Below are positions 2,477-20,000 of a stretch of 20,000 nt of DNA, piece by piece. Each line of letters opens with the position of its first letter. Position 1 is the stretch's first letter. The DNA is from Eremomyces bilateralis CBS 781.70. Taxonomy: Eukaryota. The DNA is taken from NCBI GenBank assembly GCA_010015585.1, contig ML975175.1; one strand, written 5' to 3'. The position numbers and the translations under genes were made by a program. The notes under the pieces were generated by a model. The model did no database searches. It worked only from the letters and a program-made list of their open reading frames with translations, and had not been told where the DNA came from.

Positions 2477-2837
2477 GCGATGCGGTCGGGTCGGCTTCAT
2501 CGTGACGCGACATATTGCGGGCCTTTGAGAAACCTGTCAATGTTTGAATTACTATCATCAAAACGGGACCCTCGCACCCGTTGCTTAATGGCGTCGATTC
2601 CCCTATCCAAGGAAATGGTACTGATTAGCAGAAGTCTACTCTGAACGTGTTCTATTCCCCTCAAGTTTGCCCTTAGTTCTCCATTCCTGGCATTGGGACA
2701 TTAGATTGTGGCGGAAGACCCATCCGAAAGGGCAGTGGGCGAGCCAAAGCTGCGCCACCAGTCCAGGGACTAATATCCACCGGGGTGTGAAAATTGACGG
2801 AACAGGGGTCTTGGCATTTCAGATTGCTGGATTTCTA

Positions 2838-3184
2838 CGGAGCTGCGTCAATAAAGTTTTGGCACACCAAGTACGGAAGTCCATTCAAAAGTTCTTGCTC
2901 GCCAAGAAAGTGGCTTGATTATATAAGCCCTTGGAAAGCCGATATCATGGGCGGTAGGGTGCCTAGCCAACGGGCGGGTACTAGACGCGGTAAATCGAAT
3001 GTCCGGCGCCCTTGGTTCGAATTAGGCTCTGTGAAACCTAGATTAAGTGCCTAGTTGATAGGCAGTCTAGTGCCTGTGGTATAGGCCTATAGGGCTCTCG
3101 AAACCGCTTATATAATCAAGCCACTATCTTGGCGATCAAGAACTTTGAAATGGAGCGTGCCAAAACTTTATTGACGCATCTCCG
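2838..3184. mobile_element. Non-autonomous Tc1/mariner-type MITE (347 bp)
   Basis: TA on both sides (2836-2837, 3185-3186). Terminal IR CGGAG(C/A)TGCGTCAATAAAGTTTTGGCAC, then after a 12-bp indel a second IR block (TCCATT..AAAGTTCTTG.TCGCCAAGA.AGTGGCTTGATTATATAAGC, 2880-2928 vs 3106-3154). No coding capacity. Confidence 0.88.
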
Positions 3185-3205
3185 TACGCCTCTATCTTTT
3201 GATTA

Positions 3206-4434
3206 CTACCCCCACGAGCTGCGAATACGGTTTCCCTCTAGCCGGACGACCTCCTCACACCGCCAGCGCATCTCAGATATCCTTGAGCGAATTTGCTGCT
3301 GCGTAATACGCCTCCACTCGCGTCGAATCGCCTCTTTGAACTCCTCTACTGTTTGCCAGTTCCCACCTCGTAGGCGTTCCTTTATAATCTGCCAAATTGC
3401 CTCAATAGGGTTGAGATCTGGTGACTGCGCAGGATGGGGTGGGATTGAGATACCTACCGCGCGTTTTGCATGCGCTGCTAGATTATTCCAGCTCCGCGTC
3501 CCATGGGACGGATCACCGTCTTCTTGTAGGTAAAAGACATGCTTATATTGCGCCTCGAGCGCCTTGATATGATCAATATGCTTTGGGAGGAAGTTTTGGG
3601 TATAATACTTTAGCGTCATCGAGTTTCCTTTGATCTTGATATCGGCCTCAAGACTGCCCTTTTCAGCGGCTTCCCATGCGTCTTGTACGGCAGCGAATTG
3701 TTCCGGGGTCTCGACACTTGATTTCCGAGGTCTCCGAGGTTTATACGCTCTTTTGGCAGCTGGTTTGACTGGGTCGGAGTAGAAATGGAAGGGCCCTTTT
3801 CGATCGTAGGAGATTCCGGCTGCAACGTGAACCGTCACGTCAAGGGGGCTACCCCGAGTCTCCTGTATTGATTCAAGGCGTCGAGATTCGCCCGGGACCG
3901 TAACTCATATTCCTGTTTATCGGCGAGCTCTCTCGAGTTGAAATGGACTTCGTCTGTAAAGTAGACCCTTTTCCACCACTGAGTAAGTGTCTTGCCCCGG
4001 TGCTCCTCGCCGTAGCCCTTTCGGATCCCCTTATTTATATCACGTATAGCCGTAGTGCTTGGATTTTTATAGTGCCTAGCGTTAAGCCGTTTTGAGAGGT
4101 TCTGATGGAGTGTTGATACCCCAACGCCTAGTTCTTTCGCTTGGTAGTCGATGTCCTTATCGTAGAGAGGTTCCTGTGGATCGAGGAGGCGCTGTAGAGT
4201 CCGGTTATCGAGTTTACGAGGTCGCCCTCGACGTTTACTTAACCCCCGTGTACGTTGTACAGCCTCTGGCCCGAGTTCTTTGCGATTCTCAAGCCATCGG
4301 ATACCTGTAGATGGTAGGATCTCAATACCCTTTTGGCGGCAGATTGAACGAAAAGAACGACGATTTTTAGACTGGTCGTATAGCCTAAAAAAGACTACTC
4401 GACGAGGAGAATCGTATTCTTGTCTTTTTTGCAT
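3206..4434 (-). pseudogene. Tc1-like DDE transposase, frameshifted near 3896-3899
   Basis: ATG at 4434, HTH-type N-terminus with GRPRKL, then VYFTDE, LQEDGDPSH and PAQSPDLNPIEAIW. ORFs 3835-4590 and 3206-3838 join if one base is restored after ...EYELR. Confidence 0.88.
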
Positions 4435-5286
4435 GATCCGATAAGCATTGCTGAAGATATTGATGCAAAAGGATTGAGGAAGCAGATATATCTCAGCTGC
4501 CAAGACCACTGTTCCGTCAATTTTCACAGTCACAAGCATGTGGTGGTGGTTTGCGTGGAATGTTTGCATTTTAATGATTTTACCCACCACGGATATCTCG
4601 CTCTCATTCCTCCCCCCTTTCCCTCTCTCCTTTCCTTCTTCTTTAGAGCTTATTTCTAGCGAATCAACCTGTTCAAACGGCTCCCTGAGTGATCCAAGGG
4701 TTCATCGATACGGATACTGGCTACTTGGTTGGTGGCTGAACTTGGAGCGCCGTTCCGGAACCTCCGGTTGGTGCCTGAGTTCACGGACGGAGGGACCTTG
4801 AGCACGGAGCAGTCATCAAGCACTCCCCCAACAAAACGGCTTTTCCGGTGTACAACTTTGGAAGCTGGAGAGTCTGTTTAGATTTACCATTTGGCTCTCT
4901 TCATTAGAGAGACGTCTCCAGAGCAAACCTGAATCTAACTAACATCAAGCGAACATGCAAAAGAGTTTCGGTGGTTCTGTACTCTAGTTCAAGCAATTCT
5001 GAGTCTATATACACTGAGCTCGCTCTTCGGAGGGTAGCATACACAGTAAAGGATCTACTCCCATGTTAATACTTATACGGAATACGAGTCGCTTTATTAA
5101 TGCAACTTATCAAGTTAATGATCGCCATTGCGGCTGAATGTTGCTCGAGTATATTAACCAAGCCACTCGATTGATTTTCAGTCATTGGCGCTGAGCCTCT
5201 TCGGAGTTCAAGTTGCGATTCACTTCCTACAAGCTGAAAACTTTCCGTTTATTAACTACGTCGTTCCTTTATCCTGACCCTCAACA

Positions 5287-6091: not shown

Positions 6092-6570
6092 GGGAAAGAT
6101 GAGGTTCAATTTCCTAAAATCCGGCAAACTAAAGATATAGGAGAAGGAAAAGAAGGAAGGGAAACAAACCGCAACGGAATTATCTTACATGTTCCCCATC
6201 GCTGATCGTACCTTGCTCTTCATTCACCGTGGTGTTTATCTCCAATGGTGAATTGAGATACACTGTTATGGTCCCAGACCTGTGACTGATGTATGTGTGG
6301 CTGAAGCCAGGTGTGGCGAGAGGATTATCAGGATGTAGTCATGTGTTGATGGTCTGATGGATGTGTTAATGAAGTGGAGGAGAGGTCTAATGGTCTATCA
6401 TACACAGGAAATATTAGGTGGAGATCGGAACTTGTTGTGATAGTCCCATGTGTTCAATTCTGGGTGAAGCTCCTTTCACACCCTGCTGTGCTCCATTCAC
6501 ACCTGCACCCTGCTCTATTTTGTTAGACCTGGGCCGGGAGAACATCGGTTATGAGGCAGCACGTTATTAG

Positions 6571-11094: not shown

Positions 11095-11394
11095 GGCTAG
11101 CCGCTATTAGAGGTGGTCAGATGCACAAAGGAATGTCCATCTCAGAATCGGGTATAATCGCTGGTGAGACGCCAGGAAACAAGCGTGTTTACCAAAAGTT
11201 GGATTGTTGTTGTCCAAGTTACCAAGCTTAGTCCAAGCGACCAAGCAGGACTTGGCAGCGCACGGATCCCTTTTCTGGTGGTGGAACTACTATGTAGTCC
11301 CAGTATGTCCTTTCGCTGAAGATATTCTTAAGAGAACTCATCAACTCAATCTCCCTAGCGACTTACGTTCGGTTCCTCAAAGCCTACCCTTACT

Positions 11395-14300
11395 ATGCGA
11401 CTGCTTAGCACTGGCCCTGGCGGAAGCTTCAGCCTGCACTGCTTCACCAGCAACATTCCTAGCTATGCAATCCTTTCGCACACCTGGGAGGCGGATGACC
11501 AGGAGGTTACATTCCAAGATATTATGAATGCCGCGGGAACCAGCAAGACAGGCTATAGAAAGATCGAGTTTTGTAAGGAGCAAGCAGAGAAAAACGGACT
11601 TCAGTATTTCTGGGTGGACAGCTGCTGCATCGACAAGTCAAGTAGCGCCGAGCTCACAGAAGCTATCAACTCGATGTTTCGCTGGTACCAGGATGCAGCA
11701 AAATGCTATGTATATCTCTCAGACGTTTCAACAGGAAAGCACACCCGATCTTCTAAGCTCCTATGGGAACCGGCGTTTAGACAGGGTCGATGGTTCACCA
11801 GAGGTTGGACACTACAGGAGCTTCTTGCTCCGCGATCAGTCGAGTTCTTCTCCCGAGATGGCAAGCGACTTGGTAACAAAGACTCGTTAGAACAGCAAAT
11901 TCATAAGATCACTGGGATTGCAATTGACGCACTTCGAGGACATCTTTCTCAATTCAGCGACGAGGAGCGAATGGCATGGGCAGAAAAGCGAGAGACCACG
12001 AAAGAAGAGGATCAAGCATATTGCCTCATGGGAATCTTCGACGTCTCCCTACCAGTCATATATGGCGAGGGGAAAAGAAAAGCACTCCAGCGGCTTCGAG
12101 AAGCGATCGATAAGCGTTCAGGCGATACGCAAGGTAATTTAACCGCCAAATTATTTAGTTAGCCGGCTAATCTGCGAAGTGGAATGGAACAACAAGGAAC
12201 GGGACTGTATGCAAGCCCTGCGTACTTCGGCTTCCGACTACGAGCAGTTCAAGGAGAGGAACTCTAGCCGACTTAGAGATACCTGTCAGTGGGTTCTCCA
12301 TCATAAAAATTTCCGAAACTGGAAAGACAGCAGCTCCTCAAGTCTTCTTTGGATATCTGCGGATCCTGGATGCGGAAAATCGGTTTTTTCTAAATCTCTT
12401 GTCGACGAAGACTTGAAAAATATGGACGCTCGCACAACTTACTACTTCTTCTTCAAAGATGACGACGACGTACAGAAAAGTGCAGTTACAGCTCTTGCGG
12501 CACTACTCCACCAGCTCTTTCGGCGGAAACCAACACTTATTAAACATGCTATTTCGGATTTCGCCGCTAATGGACATCAACTTTCTCAATCATTTCATAC
12601 ACTCTGGGGGATTTTAATAAAGACGGTGGCTGATCGGAATGCCGGGGAAGTCTTTTGCGTCTTGGATGCCCTCGACGAATGCACAAAAGCAGGGCAGTAT
12701 CAGATTATTAACGCTCTCAGTTCATTCTATCAGCAAGCAAGCTCCGGAAACGATTCATCTCGACTCAAAATATGTATCACTAGTCGTCCTTACCCAGACA
12801 TCGAACGGCGCTTCACCGATCTTACTTCTAACTTTCCTACGATTCGGCTACACGGCGAGCAAGAGTCAGATGAAATCAGTCGTGAGATCGACCTAGTCAT
12901 CAAATGGAGAGTATCCCAACTCGGATCTGAGCTTAAGCTTAATAATTTAGAACAGTCAAATCTCGAAATAGAACTGTTAAGAATGAGCCACCGAACATAC
13001 CTCTGGGTAACGCTCATTTTCGATATCATTCGTAAAATGATTCGACCGACAAGTCGGAAACTGAAGGCAGTTATTAGTAACCTTCCGTCTACAGTTGATG
13101 AAGCATACGAAGCGATTCTTACAAAAATCGAGGAAGATGATCGACCACAAGCGCGGAAATTGCTCTATATCGTTGTTGGAGCAACCAGGCCTCTTACACT
13201 GAAGGAAATGAACATCGCTCTAGCTATAGAAGACCGTCATCGCTCCTACGACGACCTTAAGCCTGACCTTGACGATAAAGCGAGGTTTGAGGCGTCGGTG
13301 ACACACCTCTGCGGGCTCTTTGTGACTGTAGTGGATCGAACGGTCTATCTAATCCATCAGACCGCAAAAGAATTCCTTCTCGCGAAGAGCGAGGCCGCTG
13401 CTATTGGATGGAAACATTCTCTTGTTCCAACGAATTCCGAGACCCTTATGGCCAGAGCATGCCTTACATATCTTTCATTTACTGAATTTGATGGAGCGAC
13501 AGATCAGATCTCTGCAGCAGTCAAACACGACTACTTAGATTATGCTGCCGGTTCTTGGGCTGCTCACTATCGAAAAGCACAGCATAGTGCAACCGAGCAA
13601 ATGTTGGACTTGGTTTTCAGAGTCTGCGATACCCGATCCCAGCGGTTCAAGACTTGGTTCGATATATACTGGAAGATGGCTTACCAGTGGCACTCTAATC
13701 CACAGTTCACAAGCATTCTGATGGTAGAGTCATATTTTGGGCACGAGGGTATCGTCAAGCTGCTGCTCGAGGCCGAGGCCGAGGCCGACTCGAAGGATGA
13801 TAACGGTCAGACGCCGCTGTCATGGGCGGCCGAGAACGGGCATGCGGGTATCGTCAAACTGCTGCTCGAGGCCGACGCCGACGCTGACTCGAAGGATAAC
13901 AACGGTCGGACGCCGCTGTGGAGGGCGGCCACGAACGGGCACGAGAGTATCGTCAAGCAGCTGCACGAGGCCGAGGCCGAGGCCGACTCGAAGGATAACT
14001 ACGGTCGGACGCCGCTGTGGAGGGCGGCCGAGAACGGGCACGCGGGTGTCGTCAAGCTGCTGCTCGAGGCCGAGGTCGACGCTAACTCGAAGGATAACAA
14101 CGGTCAGACGGCGCTGTCGTGGGCGGCCGCGAACGGGCATAAGAGTATCATCAAGCTGCTGCTCGAGGCCGAGGCCGAGGCCGACTCGAAGGATGACTAC
14201 GGTCGGACGCCGCTGTCGTGGGCAGCCGAGAACGGGCACGAGGGTATCGTCAAGCTGCTGCTCGAGGCCGAGGCCGAGGCCGACTCGAAGGACGATGACG

Positions 14301-14509
14301 GTCGGACGCTGCTATGGTGGGCGGCCGAGAACGGGCACGAGAGTATCGTCAAGCTGCTGCTCGAGGCCGGCGTCGACGCCAACTCGAAGGATAACTACGG
14401 TCGGACGCCGCTGTGGTGGGCGGCCGCGAACGGGCACGAGGGTATCGTGAAGCTGCTGGAGTCCTTTAGCACTCTAGGATTTTCGGTTTGCCCCCCACCC
14501 ACTACCTAA
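11395..14509 (+). CDS. Fungal NLR-like protein HET-NACHT-ankyrin (~1022 aa); exons 11395-12133 and 12180-14509
   Basis: HET domain (YAILSHTW, YFWVDSCCIDK, WFTRGWTLQELLAP); 46-nt intron GTAATT...GCTAAT...AAG keeps the frame; NACHT P-loop ADPGCGKS, Walker B VLDALDEC and ITSRP; C-terminal ankyrin repeats. Confidence 0.92.
13739..14459 (+). repeat. 99-bp high-identity ankyrin tandem repeat, 7 full units plus a partial unit
   Basis: Units begin GGGCAYG/AAG..TATCGTCAAG-like at 13739, 13838, 13937, 14036, 14135, 14234, 14333 and 14432. The array is GC-rich and contains internal GAGGCC hexamers. Confidence 0.95.
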
Positions 14510-15360: not shown

Positions 15361-15735
15361 GGTGAGGCACACCCCACTGTGCTCCATTCATACCCGCTGA
15401 CCCCGCCACCCTGCTCCATTCACGCCCTACCCGGTCACATGACATACCAATCCCTTAGAAATGTGGTCGTGGGTTACCTCAGCAAGCTCAGGCTATTTGT
15501 GGTCGTGCCAAGGCACCGGAGTGGGACTATACCTAATCGGTAAGTCACATGCACTCCTCGAACAAATAGCCTGAGGATTCTGTCAATGGGTTTTGGGTGT
15601 GTGTGGAGAGCTTTCATACCAAATGGAAGACCATTTTTAACTCCATTTTCTTCCACAACCACACTGTGCTCCGTCAATTAAATATAACCATTCGATTCCC
15701 CTGCTTTTTCTCCATAATTGATTGAATTTTGGGTC

Positions 15736-16600
15736 ATGTCGGCCTGAAACCAGCGTCGTCAGAGCGCGCGGTTGAACTCGCCCACTTTGCTACTTGCTCC
15801 AAGTCCTCAGCATAGTGCTGCGTCAAACACATCTAATGCACCACATCAGAAAGTAAGAGGGTCTCAAAGACGCAGTAAGCCACAGAGAATAAATGAGATA
15901 TGTCAATTCATGAAGAAAAGAGCATTAAATTTTGAGAATTTATCTACATCTACGCGACGACTTAAGGGTTGGGTGGTTATAGAGAGTGCTCTGTCACGCG
16001 AGCCAAATAGCTCGCTGAGGCTGTCTACGGTTAGCCAGAGCCCAGAGGTCTTAGACGCACTATAAGAATCCCGCGTCTAGTGCGGCAGGAACTATCACTA
16101 TAAAGGGTCTAAGGAAGGAAATGAAGGCACTAGAAGAAGCCGTAGATATGTTTAGTGCCTACTAAGTCGACTGCATCTAGGAGAAGACTTTACCTACCGG
16201 CGTAGGGAGGGGGAAACAGTTAGAGGGTTAGAAAATCGAGGACTACGAGTGTATACTAGGCGACATACTGTCTAGGCAGATATACGAGCAAGTTAGCACT
16301 CGTGCTCCTCTTCTATGTAGATTGCTTAATAGTCTTATGACACCTAAGATGAGAAAAGATCGACTACCACGGGATCCTGTTAAGTTTAACCACAGGATTG
16401 CGATAGTCACGTTAATTCTCTGCTATTCTCGGGGGTCGGAAGGGAGCAATAGGTTTCCCCGCGTATTTGACGCCTTTCTGCATTCAAATGGTGTGAAACG
16501 GCGTGTCCTCGATATTCTTCACCAGCTTGGGGTTTATAAAGGCTACAAGAGGGCCCACAGATATCTCGAAACCGTGGCAGAATAAACAAAGGCATCCTTA
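15736..16600 (+). pseudogene. N-terminal remnant of a DUF6589/Academ-type transposase-like protein
   Basis: Degenerate frame with many TAG/TAA stops, ending in ILCYSRGSEGSNRFPRVFDAFLHSNGVKRRVLDILHQLGVYKGY. This resembles the LxLHxxGxxRRVIDxLxxLG..SY motif of fungal DUF6589-associated proteins. Truncated at about 16600. Confidence 0.6.
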
Positions 16601-16654
16601 TCGCCTCTTAGTATATAGACGTCGACCGATTATAACTAGGGGACGGTCCGTCGA

Positions 16655-17024
16655 TATACTCCTGTCTAATTCGATCCAAAGGGATAAGGATGAAGCCGAT
16701 GCCACCGCGACAAAGCAATAGCGTTACCTGGAATATGACACTTTTACCAAAAGATATCTTCGCTACAAGAGGAAGGTCCTCCTACTTGAATACTAAATGC
16801 CATATAACATCTACCTGCTTCTAACGAGGCTCGAATGGGTAGAGATGGCGGTCTAGGCCTGCTCGGATGATGACCTTCTGCACTTCCTCGGGCACGTCTC
16901 TTGCAATTTCGACCAGCCGCTGTATAGCTAGCATACTCGTAGTGCTATAGGCATCGTGGACGAGATCTCTGGCGATGTCCACAGTCTCTCGTCGCCCGTT
17001 TCGAACGCTCGCCTTGCTTCGCAT
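16655..17024 (-). pseudogene. N-terminal remnant of a RecQ-like SF2 helicase
   Basis: Reading through two TAG stops gives YPFEPR*KQVDVIWHLVFK*EDLPLVAKISFGKSVIFQ...GIGFILIPL, i.e. the Q motif, Walker A (AKTSFGKS with a T>I change) and motif Ia. Confidence 0.8.
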
Positions 17025-17544
17025 GGGAAATATGAACACAAAATGTGTTCAATAATAGATATTCGTGTGAATACCGACCGAGAAAGGCGTTATATGACAT
17101 CCAATGGGTGTTTTCCAGGCTCATTCGACCGTAAGCTCCGGAACGATGGCTGGATGGTGATTTCGGTGTGGTCTAGTTCATCACATATTAGCGTTTTTCA
17201 CCCGACACAAGCATGGACATGTAAAAAAAAATCAATTACGAGATAGAGAATACTTTAATACACAATCGATCAGATTTTGGAGTACATACGACGTGTTTTG
17301 ATGTGGTTATTAATGGATCGTGATTTTGTCAAATCCACAGAGATACATACAAACCACATACAAAATTTATGCAGAGCAGTGCGCGTCATTGACAGAATCC
17401 TCAGGCTATTTACCAGAGGAGTAGTTAAAGTAACGTGACCTTTTACAAAAAAGGTTAGACTCCCCTGAGAAATAGCCTGAGCTTGCTGAGGTAAGTCGTG
17501 GGACTCCTCAAAACTGAGGATGAGTAAGCTTCAGCTGACGAACC

Positions 17545-20000
17545 TAGGGCAGTCCAAATGAGCTCATCTGGATTAAATGATGAATTACAGAGGAATCTCA
17601 TAAAAGGTGGCAGTAATGGGCCCGTGCGTTGCTGATTAATCATGCTGAGTCATCATACTGAGTCATGTAACGTGCCTATTTTATGAAGAATTGAAGATTG
17701 AGGCTATGTACAGAGTATATACACGCCCATTGCTTGAACAATTGCGTACTAAGATGCCCCCCAAAGGGCGCATCCCCGATGTAGAAATACTCAATTCCTT
17801 TATACGAATAAAACACCTTGATTACGCTACAGATAGAGCTATCTGTACTCTAAGGCGTGTAAGACAGAACGATCCTGGCAAACCACCGACCTCCGGACAC
17901 ACCTCACACGCTGCAAGCCATACCTTACGCTTAATGGGAAATTATAGACGTCAATCCAGCCGAAACTTAGGGTGCCGTCGCTCTCTGCGCTACAAATGAG
18001 GACTATCCAGTTGGATATGACAATGGCTGTCATAATGGATGCCTTACCGCTTGATGCTTTTGAGGAGAAGAAGCACCTCGCGCGTATCTATCGCACGTTC
18101 TATCCTCTCGTCAAGCCTCCTACACGGAAGGATATCGTCAACGACTTTCTACCAGGTTAGTTTAAGTACTCTTTTATTTCTCCCAGCCACTAATTAAGTA
18201 GAACTCTACGAACGTTGCCGGAAGCAAGTTATGCCTATTATTCAGAGCTCCTCCACAATCAACCTTATTGCTGATGAGTCGAACAACATACGCAAGAAAC
18301 GAGTCCAGAATCTCTGTGTCAACGTGCCAGACTACGGCGCCTTATATATCAAATCCGAGATCCTCGCCGGCGAAACCTTAAATGGCGAATGGAGCGCGGG
18401 GTGGCTATACAAGTGCATGAAGGAACTATGCAATGGCAACTTCACACGGATCAATTCGGTTACAACAGACACCTGTGCTACACAGCTTAAAGCGGCGACG
18501 ATACTCAGCAAGCAACCGGAGCTTCGACACGTATTCTTTGTACCGTGCAATAGCCACGGCTTGCAGCTCCTTATTAAAGACATTGTGTTACTCCCGTGGT
18601 TCGAAGAACGGTTCAAAAAAGCACAGGCTATTGTTACGGCATTTACCTCCTCTCCAAAGCAACTAGGTATCCTCCGAGAGCATATGCAAAGTACAATGCA
18701 GAAGGTATACTCCTTTACCTTATCTGTTATTACTAGATGGGGTACTCAAGTATCAATGCTCAAGTCTGTCAAGCGAGCACAACCGGCCTTATTACTGTAC
18801 TTCAACAGCCTACCAGACGAGGTAGGCGATTCGGTAAACGAGCTTAAGGCGGTAGTCTGGGATCGACAATTCTGGATTGACATCGAATTCATCCTCCACA
18901 TTTTGGAACCGATCGATAGCCTTATTAAGCAGTCAGAATCGGACTCTGCAAAGCTTCACCACGTCGTGACTAGCTGGAAGCAAGCTCAACAGCACTTAGC
19001 CAATATCGTTCAAGAACGTCCTGATATCGATGACCTCTCAAAGATCCCACAACTCCTGCAGTCTCGATTTGAACGTCAAACGACAGATATTCATATTGCT
19101 GCGTTCCTTCTTAACCCACATACGATCGGCGACGACTCAATACCATTCCATACAGCCGCACAGGTTTGGGAGAAGCTTAATAACTTCTTAAAGAGGATGG
19201 GGGTGGATTATAAGAATGCTATAACTCAGATCATTGAGTTTCGGGGGCGTGAAGGACGATTCAATATGGGACACTTTATATGGGAGCATAAAGAGACGAT
19301 TAAGACTTTCTGGCAGATTGCGTCCACATTCGCCCCAGCAGTTGGACCTATTGCATTGAGACTGGCATCAACTCCTTGCAATTCAGTGCCCTGTGAGCGC
19401 TCCTTCTCTATACTCAAACTATTACAGAACAAGCTCCGTTCATGCCTTGAGGGTACGAATGTTGATATGCTACAATTCGTGTATATCAATCAGAGAGTAT
19501 TTGATAGGAAGGGAAGAGACCATGCTAGCGAGATTGAAAATGCAGCGGAGGACTTAGAGGAGGAGTATATTGAGCTTGAAGATGGCCTTATTGAGGCGGG
19601 AGAAGATCATGTAGATAATCCTATGCTATTGTAAACACGAAAAGAATCAATATCTTTAGGATTAAAGCTTCAAATACGTTAACAAAGAAAAGCAGTTGAA
19701 GGTAGGAACCAAGTTGGCTAGTATTTATAAGGACGGCGAGCCCTAATGTACATACACGTCCATTACTGTTATGGTTTGGTCATTTGAGTGATGAAGATGT
19801 CGATTACAAGACTTATACAGTTGGAGAGAGCTATGAGAACGGGTATTAGGATCTCCTGCAAATACTGCTGCGGGTGCCTCAGGCACTAATATTTGGGTAA
19901 TGCTATACCTAATTAGGCTAGTATTAATGAGGGCATTTATGAGCGCTAGAGCTAAATCGGGTTAGATTTCATGAAGACTTTATGAGGACGGCGTGCCCTA
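17545..20000 (+). mobile_element. hAT-superfamily transposon (boundaries tentative)
   Basis: TAGGGCA at 17545 and TGCCCTA at 19994-20000; ATGAG/CTCAT subterminal motifs at both ends; hAT transposase inside. The TSD cannot be checked because the window ends here. Confidence 0.6.
17754..19634 (+). pseudogene. hAT transposase (BED finger plus DDE core plus dimerisation domain); frameshift at about 17855, TAG at 17945-17947, intron 18156-18201
   Basis: C..C...HLTRC BED-like finger across the frameshift; catalytic motifs IADES, VTTD, CNSHGLQL, TRWGT and SVPCERSFS; intron GTTAGT...CTAAT...TAG restores the frame into ORF 18231-19634. Confidence 0.88.

Follow-up and report, generated by a model that had tools for sequence, protein, structure and literature searches.

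Introduction

Among fungal DDE transposons, RecQ-type helicases are carried by AcademH, a lineage reportedly going back to Kojima 2020, within the Academ superfamily, and by KolobokH, whose target is TTAA. RecQ helicases have 3′–5′ polarity. In the accessible portions of the literature, these helicase-bearing DDE transposons are known from sequence, and the helicase is without a demonstrated substrate. AcademH, as outlined in excerpts of two papers (PMC10045372, PMC10799480), combines Academ-type DDE motifs with a RecQ-like helicase and terminal inverted repeats in a fungal host, and is said to make target duplications of 9 or 10 bp (PMC10045372). KolobokH is a fungal DDE transposon with a RecQ helicase (PMC9587614, in part); in the supplement rows consulted, its transposase motifs are FDCSWSH, IDGDLD and ADLKH.

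The solved folds nearest to its transposase are those of the Drosophila P element, which works with GTP as cofactor, and of hAT Hermes, and both elements share an 8-bp target duplication with the one described here. The P element makes a 17-nt staggered cut, so that its ends have 3′ extensions of 17 nt, and its transferred strand is looped out (PMC7776569, in part), which provides a mechanistic analogy. Hairpins at the ends are also found in HUH/Rep transposons (IS200/IS605, IS91, Helitron, Replitron); according to the sections of that literature available, they are recognised on single-stranded DNA, which is supplied by the element's own or a host helicase.

The present work concerns a transposon in a stretch of 20,000 nucleotides from Eremomyces bilateralis CBS 781.70, called the window below. 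It shares the AcademH traits listed above, but its target duplications are mostly of 8 bp. It differs from KolobokH in its motifs and in lacking a TTAA target, and from the P element in that it carries a helicase, has no THAP or BED Pfam match in the N-terminal transposase exon (profile scan only), and has ends that are each self-complementary with a covarying stem. Unlike the HUH/Rep elements, it has an RNase H-fold DDE enzyme, symmetric ends and a target duplication of fixed length.

The element family is already known. Three of its features appear to be undescribed: fold-back ends that covary, a duplication of 8 bp, and self-targeting. The literature searched holds no account of folded Academ ends or of insertion into an element's own inner arm, and four terminal 18-mers were looked for there and found in no paper; the Repbase ends and Kojima 2020 lie outside this scope and may show them. 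We propose that the fold-back unit at each end is a cis signal that acts on DNA during transposition, and give this reading a probability of roughly 55%. The covarying ends suggest a substrate for the helicase.

Element and parent copy

The element and its coding remnants are located as follows.

15466–15473, plus strand: left target site duplication, 8 bp, GTCGTGGG, same letters as 17495–17502
15474–17494, plus strand: AcademH-like transposon, non-autonomous, 2,021 bp, lacking about 4 kb of the 6,016-bp parent
15736–16660, plus strand: transposase gene, decayed 5′ exon with substitutions relative to the parent
16656–17048, minus strand: RecQ-like helicase gene, remnant covering residues 1–131, with two TAG stops
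17173–17289, minus strand: intron in the leader of the helicase transcript, offset-mapped from the parent joint 5966>6084 (run X3), with CT..AC ends
17495–17502, plus strand: right target site duplication, 8 bp, same letters as 15466–15473

An earlier note, made from the letters of this DNA alone, had placed the termini with exact arms but had missed the 8-bp duplication GTCGTGGG. A 9-bp version of this duplication fails. Among 40 candidate end pairs in the same genome, the duplication is exactly 8 bp in 19, 8 bp with one mismatch in two, 9 bp in one and 10 bp in none, and the remaining 18 rows include nested inner ends. For 12 metagenome end pairs, 8 bp was found in one and 9 bp in two.

The parent is a 6,016-bp copy in the same genome (L031, G000:C26:193172-199187). 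The 2,021-bp form is present there in five full-length copies of 99–100% identity, the window copy counted, and in one truncated copy. In the window copy the deletion junction lies near 16658. It retains the 5′ parts of both genes, which have decayed mostly by transitions: 131 substitutions separate it from the parent in 1,185 bp, C>T and G>A together accounting for 79, and the transposase exon remnant has no Pfam match. Although the interior has decayed, the terminal 115 bp on the left and 108 bp on the right show no changes at all. The helicase of its own that the earlier note had ascribed to the element is indeed carried by the family, with an intact 834-aa frame in the parent copy, but the window copy has only a remnant of it. 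The genome has apparently intact, recently mobile copies, which are a natural starting material for an assay.

The surrounding window is fungal sequence, with HET-NACHT-ankyrin genes and hAT and DDE_3 transposases. A hAT transposase (DUF659, Dimer_Tnp_hAT; 17649–19634) begins about 150 bp to the right of the element. A Tc1/mariner-like element with a DDE_3 match lies at 2786–4528, its edges being 39-nt imperfect inverted repeats; nested inverted repeats at 2836–3186 (arms of 30 and 49 nt) adjoin it and may be a small insert. At 11359–14509, an ORF with a HET domain is followed by a NACHT-like/ankyrin ORF with a 99-bp repeat, a fungal NLR-type locus. There is no tRNA in the window, and a sigma-70 promoter and terminator scan, which is inapplicable to a fungus, gave chance-level counts.

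Classification

The parent has an intron-split transposase gene (DUF6589, E 1e-67) and, convergent with it on the opposite strand, the gene of the 834-aa helicase. The helicase ORF matches Pfam DEAD and Helicase_C, and its best PDB matches are RecQ helicases (E 2.5e-18). The helicase is likewise on the opposite strand in 16/16 of those metagenome loci listed that have a right end. The transposase model (pLDDT 82) shows an RNase H fold that contains a large insertion. It comes nearest to the transposase of the P element (Z 10.0; 278 aligned at rmsd 5.4), followed by Hermes (Z 8.0; 282 aligned at rmsd 7.1), and these scores are middling; Foldseek gave no match for the model at E≤0.001.

The transposase motifs YDNFD (D15) and FGDQ/AFGDQ (D176) agree, by eye and unscored, with fDNwD and ltgdq in the consensus of the Academ profile, for which positions 1–40 and 169–194 of RNase_H_Academ.hmm were compared (PMC5751038 supplement, in part). 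KolobokH-type DDE motifs do not appear when the supplement rows consulted are set by eye against alignment A1, and Pfam scans of the parent's three long ORFs found no HUH family. Membership of the Academ superfamily rests on the modelled RNase H-like DDE fold and on this DNxD/GDQ match by eye, and the earlier note's guess of Academ is right at superfamily level. We are highly confident that the element is an Academ-type helicase transposon. Of the AcademH traits, it has the RecQ-related superfamily 2 helicase and the terminal inverted repeats; since its duplications are mostly 8 bp rather than 9–10 bp, it is filed as AcademH-like and not as strict AcademH.

At least three such families occur in the same genome, with helicases down to about 33% identity. 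In metagenomes, the transposases of the best 80 of 220 relatives are 28–89% identical to the query, and those of Stachybotrys, Fusarium, Metarhizium and Dactylonectria are 82–90% identical over the matched part, which hints at possible horizontal spread; near-identical transposases in other ascomycete genera range from 81 to 90%. No relative was found in viral contigs or in prokaryote genome contigs. Three loci (L211, L219, L228) are 11–12 kb long, with 5–6 kb extra between transposase and helicase that is possibly cargo, and two of them have 9-bp duplications. One 970-aa record (P0017) joins DUF6589 to PF02171 (Piwi) and is either a fusion or a gene-model artefact.

Fold-back ends

Each end of the window element consists of an outer arm, a spacer and an inner arm.

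15474–15498, plus strand: left outer arm, with the terminal TTACCTCAG, a 4-nt linker, a second CTCAGGC and the start of the stem
15487–15575, no strand: left fold-back unit, 14-bp closing stem of 15487–15500 with 15562–15575, predicted fold
15505–15516, no strand: small hairpin GTGCC-AA-GGCAC, predicted fold, its loop being CTTG on the other strand
15518–15557, no strand: interior helix GGAGTG/CACTCC around the motif hairpin, predicted fold
15527–15542, plus strand: oriented motif CTATACC and hairpin TACC-TAATC-GGTA, from motif polarity and hairpin counts
15564–15588, plus strand: left inner arm, 25/25 inverted to 17387–17411
17387–17411, minus strand: right inner arm, 25/25 inverted to 15564–15588
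17400–17481, no strand: right fold-back unit, with a 12-bp closing stem, a second stem CAGAGGAGT/ACTCCCCTG and two hairpins, from predicted folds
17453–17458, minus strand: CTAACC motif of the right fold-back unit
17470–17494, minus strand: right outer arm and terminus, 25/25 inverted to 15474–15498

The perfect outer and inner arms described in the earlier note are there, and so is the divergence of the spacers between them, whose alignment score is reached by 119/500 shuffles. When whole ends are folded, as that note had suggested, 0/200 shuffles are as good on either strand; z lies between −5.3 and −6.8 for DNA and between −4.8 and −6.5 for RNA. It is important to note that much of this energy comes from the 12–14 bp stem between an end's own arms. 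Folded by itself, the left spacer has z of −1.5 to −2.3 (7–17 of 200 shuffles as good) and the right one −3.2 to −3.7 (0–2 of 200). The helices that had been named for the spacers do occur in the predicted folds, but the two spacers differ in topology and are weaker alone. In a sister subfamily, a compensated stem TATCT/AGATA stands in place of the right unit's second stem. Judged from sequence, the perfect 25-bp arms are a trait of a young subfamily and the self-pairing is a trait of the lineage.

Pairing across the lineage

The lineage-wide terminal motif is TTA(C/T)CTCAG-N3-6-CTCAG(A/G)C, and its second half pairs with an inverted copy 30–135 nt inward. It offers a simple handle by which such elements, MITE-like derivatives included, can be annotated in fungal genomes. 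Ends were collected by this outer motif only, which gave 168 ends (53 from metagenomes) in 44 sequence clusters. Pairing was then scored at stem positions 8–14, that is, beyond the seven motif pairs, with all 44 clusters kept. The earlier note had held that its reading would fall if homologous ends showed no compensatory changes. Such changes are present: 6–7 of the 7 positions form Watson–Crick pairs in 24/44 cluster representatives, compared to 55/1,892 (2.9%) of swapped control combinations under the same scoring. The mean number of pairs is 4.75, a value reached by 0/20,000 permutations (maximum 3.27). In the 34 units with intact stems (those of the 36/44 clusters that satisfied a 10-of-14 filter, less two duplicates), positions 1–7 are nearly invariant, and all four pair types occur at positions 9–14.

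The decisive comparison is between the two ends of one element, made for 13 left–right pairs. For L180, L211 and L219, only 0–2 of 7 bases are common to the two stems of an element, and the stems cross-pair at 0–2/7, yet each pairs with itself at 6–7/7, so that a longer shared binding site is no explanation there. In the window family, the left and right stems share 6 of 7 bases. Pairing is not uniform across the collection, as 18/44 clusters have at most 4 of 7 pairs without gaps, among them family C and two groups with multiple copies, L188 and L195; L197 also pairs poorly without gaps. An alignment of 14 close relatives gives weak, suggestive covariation, with 36/500 shuffles reaching the pair count and 10/500 the score. 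MAFFT with RNAalifold recovers the closing stem alone, the interior helices being missed because the interiors vary in length. Each end consists of a sequence-conserved cap (TTAyCTCAG..CTCAGrC) followed by a fold-back unit conserved in pairing and not in sequence.

Left ends were found with the strict pattern at 19/27 metagenome loci with at least 1,400 nt upstream, and a looser pattern revealed variant left ends in three of the eight misses (L160, L200, L213). Subfamily A3 (G000: C35, C50, C44, C20, C17) and L197 have a left-type spacer at both ends, so that exchange or copying of end types from one terminus to the other can take place.

Derivatives of 480–700 bp and a 130-bp mini-element retain long stems, and short derivatives without the two genes have their own distinct, well-paired stems, which points to a role in cis. 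This bears on the option that the stems act in RNA, where as part of 5′ leaders or read-in transcripts they would stand in the way of scanning or hold down expression driven by host promoters. The genes are convergent, start near the ends and are transcribed inward, and the RNA folds are significant to the same degree as the DNA folds. Run X3, which is RNA by guess, has three joints skipping 46–117 nt, two of them with GT-AG ends, and both genes are spliced. One of its spliced contigs extends to the right terminus, so the fold-back unit is present in RNA too, against a DNA-only reading, and in two contigs the flanking sequence continues into the left end. However, this transcript support is one study, with contigs only and no readable start site. 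In addition, gene-free derivatives keep their stems, the weak signals on strand preference (see below) point to the strand that is antisense to these transcripts, and Rfam gave no match at E≤1 in four loci (L031, L087, L180, L219). Control at the RNA level is thus improbable in our judgement, and we retain the reading of a cis signal on DNA.

Spacer interior and strand preference

The branching of the interior is less well supported than the closing stem. In 32 units, pre-selected for intact stems (36/44 clusters), the interior z has a mean of −1.1 and is ≤−2 in 9–10. A motif of the type CTA(N)ACC, whose pattern was derived from the same data in which it was counted, occurs on the terminus-first strand in 22/34 units and on the opposite strand in 1/34, with 2.85 expected; in the largest cluster the polarity is 47 vs 0 of 53. 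The motif opens a hairpin of at least 3 bp in 11/22 units (shuffles: mean 5.5, maximum 10), the fourth pair of which occurs in all four types, and 7/22 motif-bearing units have a hairpin of at least 4 bp upstream. An interior helix varies as GGAGC/GCTCC, GGACCG/CGGTCC, GGACG/CGTCC and GAACC/GGTTC in alignment A2, an imperfect alignment in which 66% of its cells are paired. The earlier view that structure is conserved and sequence is not holds across relatives whose transposases are 28–89% identical to the query; the conserved part that is well supported is the closing stem and the oriented motif hairpin, and not a branched fold common to both spacers. A CACGTG/TCACRTG box was dropped as a defining feature, since most of the 34 units lack it and its orientation varies.

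Loops of the types GNA, GNNA, CTTG and T-rich are stable in DNA. Short loops of such types favour the transferred strand by 18 to 4, with classes set post hoc and many of the loops homologous. At stem position 8, the terminus-first strand has C.A in 22 ends and T.G in none; this corresponds to a G.T wobble on the transferred strand, and the 22 ends may descend from one event. Over all units, the mismatch polarity (G.T 9 vs A.C 17) is not significant. Together, loop types, mismatch polarity and the position-8 C.A weakly favour the transferred (3′-end) strand. Spacers align better in the same orientation in 27/34 units and flipped in six, mostly near shuffle level, and no convincing case of flip-flop was seen in the 34 units, L168 being the single candidate.

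These data can be set against the main rival, neutral upkeep. In that case the three duplex CTCAG sites, two direct and one inverted, would suffice for function, and template switching would keep their flanks complementary. Template switching can create or repair stems and give multi-base compensatory changes, as described in the portion consulted of 10.1101/2021.04.15.439925; stem positions 1–7 are as invariant as a binding site would be, and some active ends carry short stems. Yet the same process also inverts spacers (PMC8604942, in part), which is at odds with the motif polarity of 22 vs 1 and the lack of a convincing flip, and the C.A mismatch persists in the 22 ends of an amplified family. 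Moreover, structure-breaking changes seldom fix, according to the same portion of 10.1101/2021.04.15.439925, which implies selection. We consider neutral upkeep unlikely, and it is probable that the stem pairing is under selection.

Mechanistic proposal

We now turn to how a fold-back unit acting in cis on DNA could work. The transposase would bind the CTCAG repeats at each end, and cleavage, like that of P elements, would leave or expose a 3′ tail. The 3′–5′ helicase encoded by the element could then unwind about 100 nt of each end, upon which the transferred strand would refold into the stem and the motif hairpin. The transposase would use this structure, and the refolding would leave the terminal 12–15 nt free for strand transfer. 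By analogy with the P element and with HUH elements, opening by the helicase, refolding of the strand and use of the fold by the transposase are the most likely steps.

More tentatively, and at somewhat less than even odds, AcademH-like elements may constitute a mechanistically distinct class of eukaryotic DDE transposons, in which a helicase melts the ends, the refolded single strand is recognised and insertions are steered to existing ends. Such a class would join HUH-style recognition of structure (stem and CTA(N)ACC hairpin) to DDE chemistry.

Insertion sites and doubled ends

Readable flanks were obtained for 122 ends, and 22 match the end library, six of these matching sequence beyond mini or truncated units. 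The other 16/122 flanks lie within the inner arm of another copy or immediately beyond it, at about seven distinct sites, while end units are estimated to make up less than 0.1% of the 26.9-Mb genome. Six nested flanks elsewhere in the genome share one 8-bp site in the left inner arm, equivalent to 15563–15570, and carry different outer units, so several of the events were independent. In the proposed mechanism, the same recognition of CTGAG would account for new copies landing in the inner arms of old ones.

Seven further flanks lie at one repeated near-palindromic target. Run X1 contains right-to-left end joints with 7–8 letters between the ends, at about genomic depth. These were rejected as evidence of circles, since the letters match the repeated target beside the seven flanks, and they are probably tandem insertions. 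Parvovirus terminal hairpins are the model for a fold-back that serves as primer or origin. A replicative or copy-out pathway of this kind, in which the helicase peels a strand and circles or dimers are intermediates, would fit the T/Y-shaped ends and the presence of tandem copies and doubled ends among the genomic copies, as well as the X1 joints if these were not so readily explained by insertion. It would be harder to reconcile with ends that show no flip-flop orientation and are open rather than covalently closed, and with an enzyme that is DDE and not HUH. We regard it as the least probable of the alternatives, and keep to the cis signal in DDE transposition.

Doubled-end elements with flanking 8-bp duplications were found at G000:C3:1252090, C14:369577, C22:162936 and C40:12459, and these duplications indicate that the doubled form moved as a unit. 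Two mini-elements, G000:C1:1825588-1825676 (89 bp) and C36:46949-47078 (130 bp), have two terminal caps and one fold-back unit, the latter with an 8-bp duplication. A short derivative (L108, G000:C8:974267-976494) has an apparent Tc1/mariner element inside, and its flanks are inverted copies of each other with no direct duplication. Finally, the motif GCTCCATTCA lies beside several insertions of the family (15368–15427 and 6477–6506 in the window; G000:C15:620093 and C1:1825514), and is possibly a second target preference.
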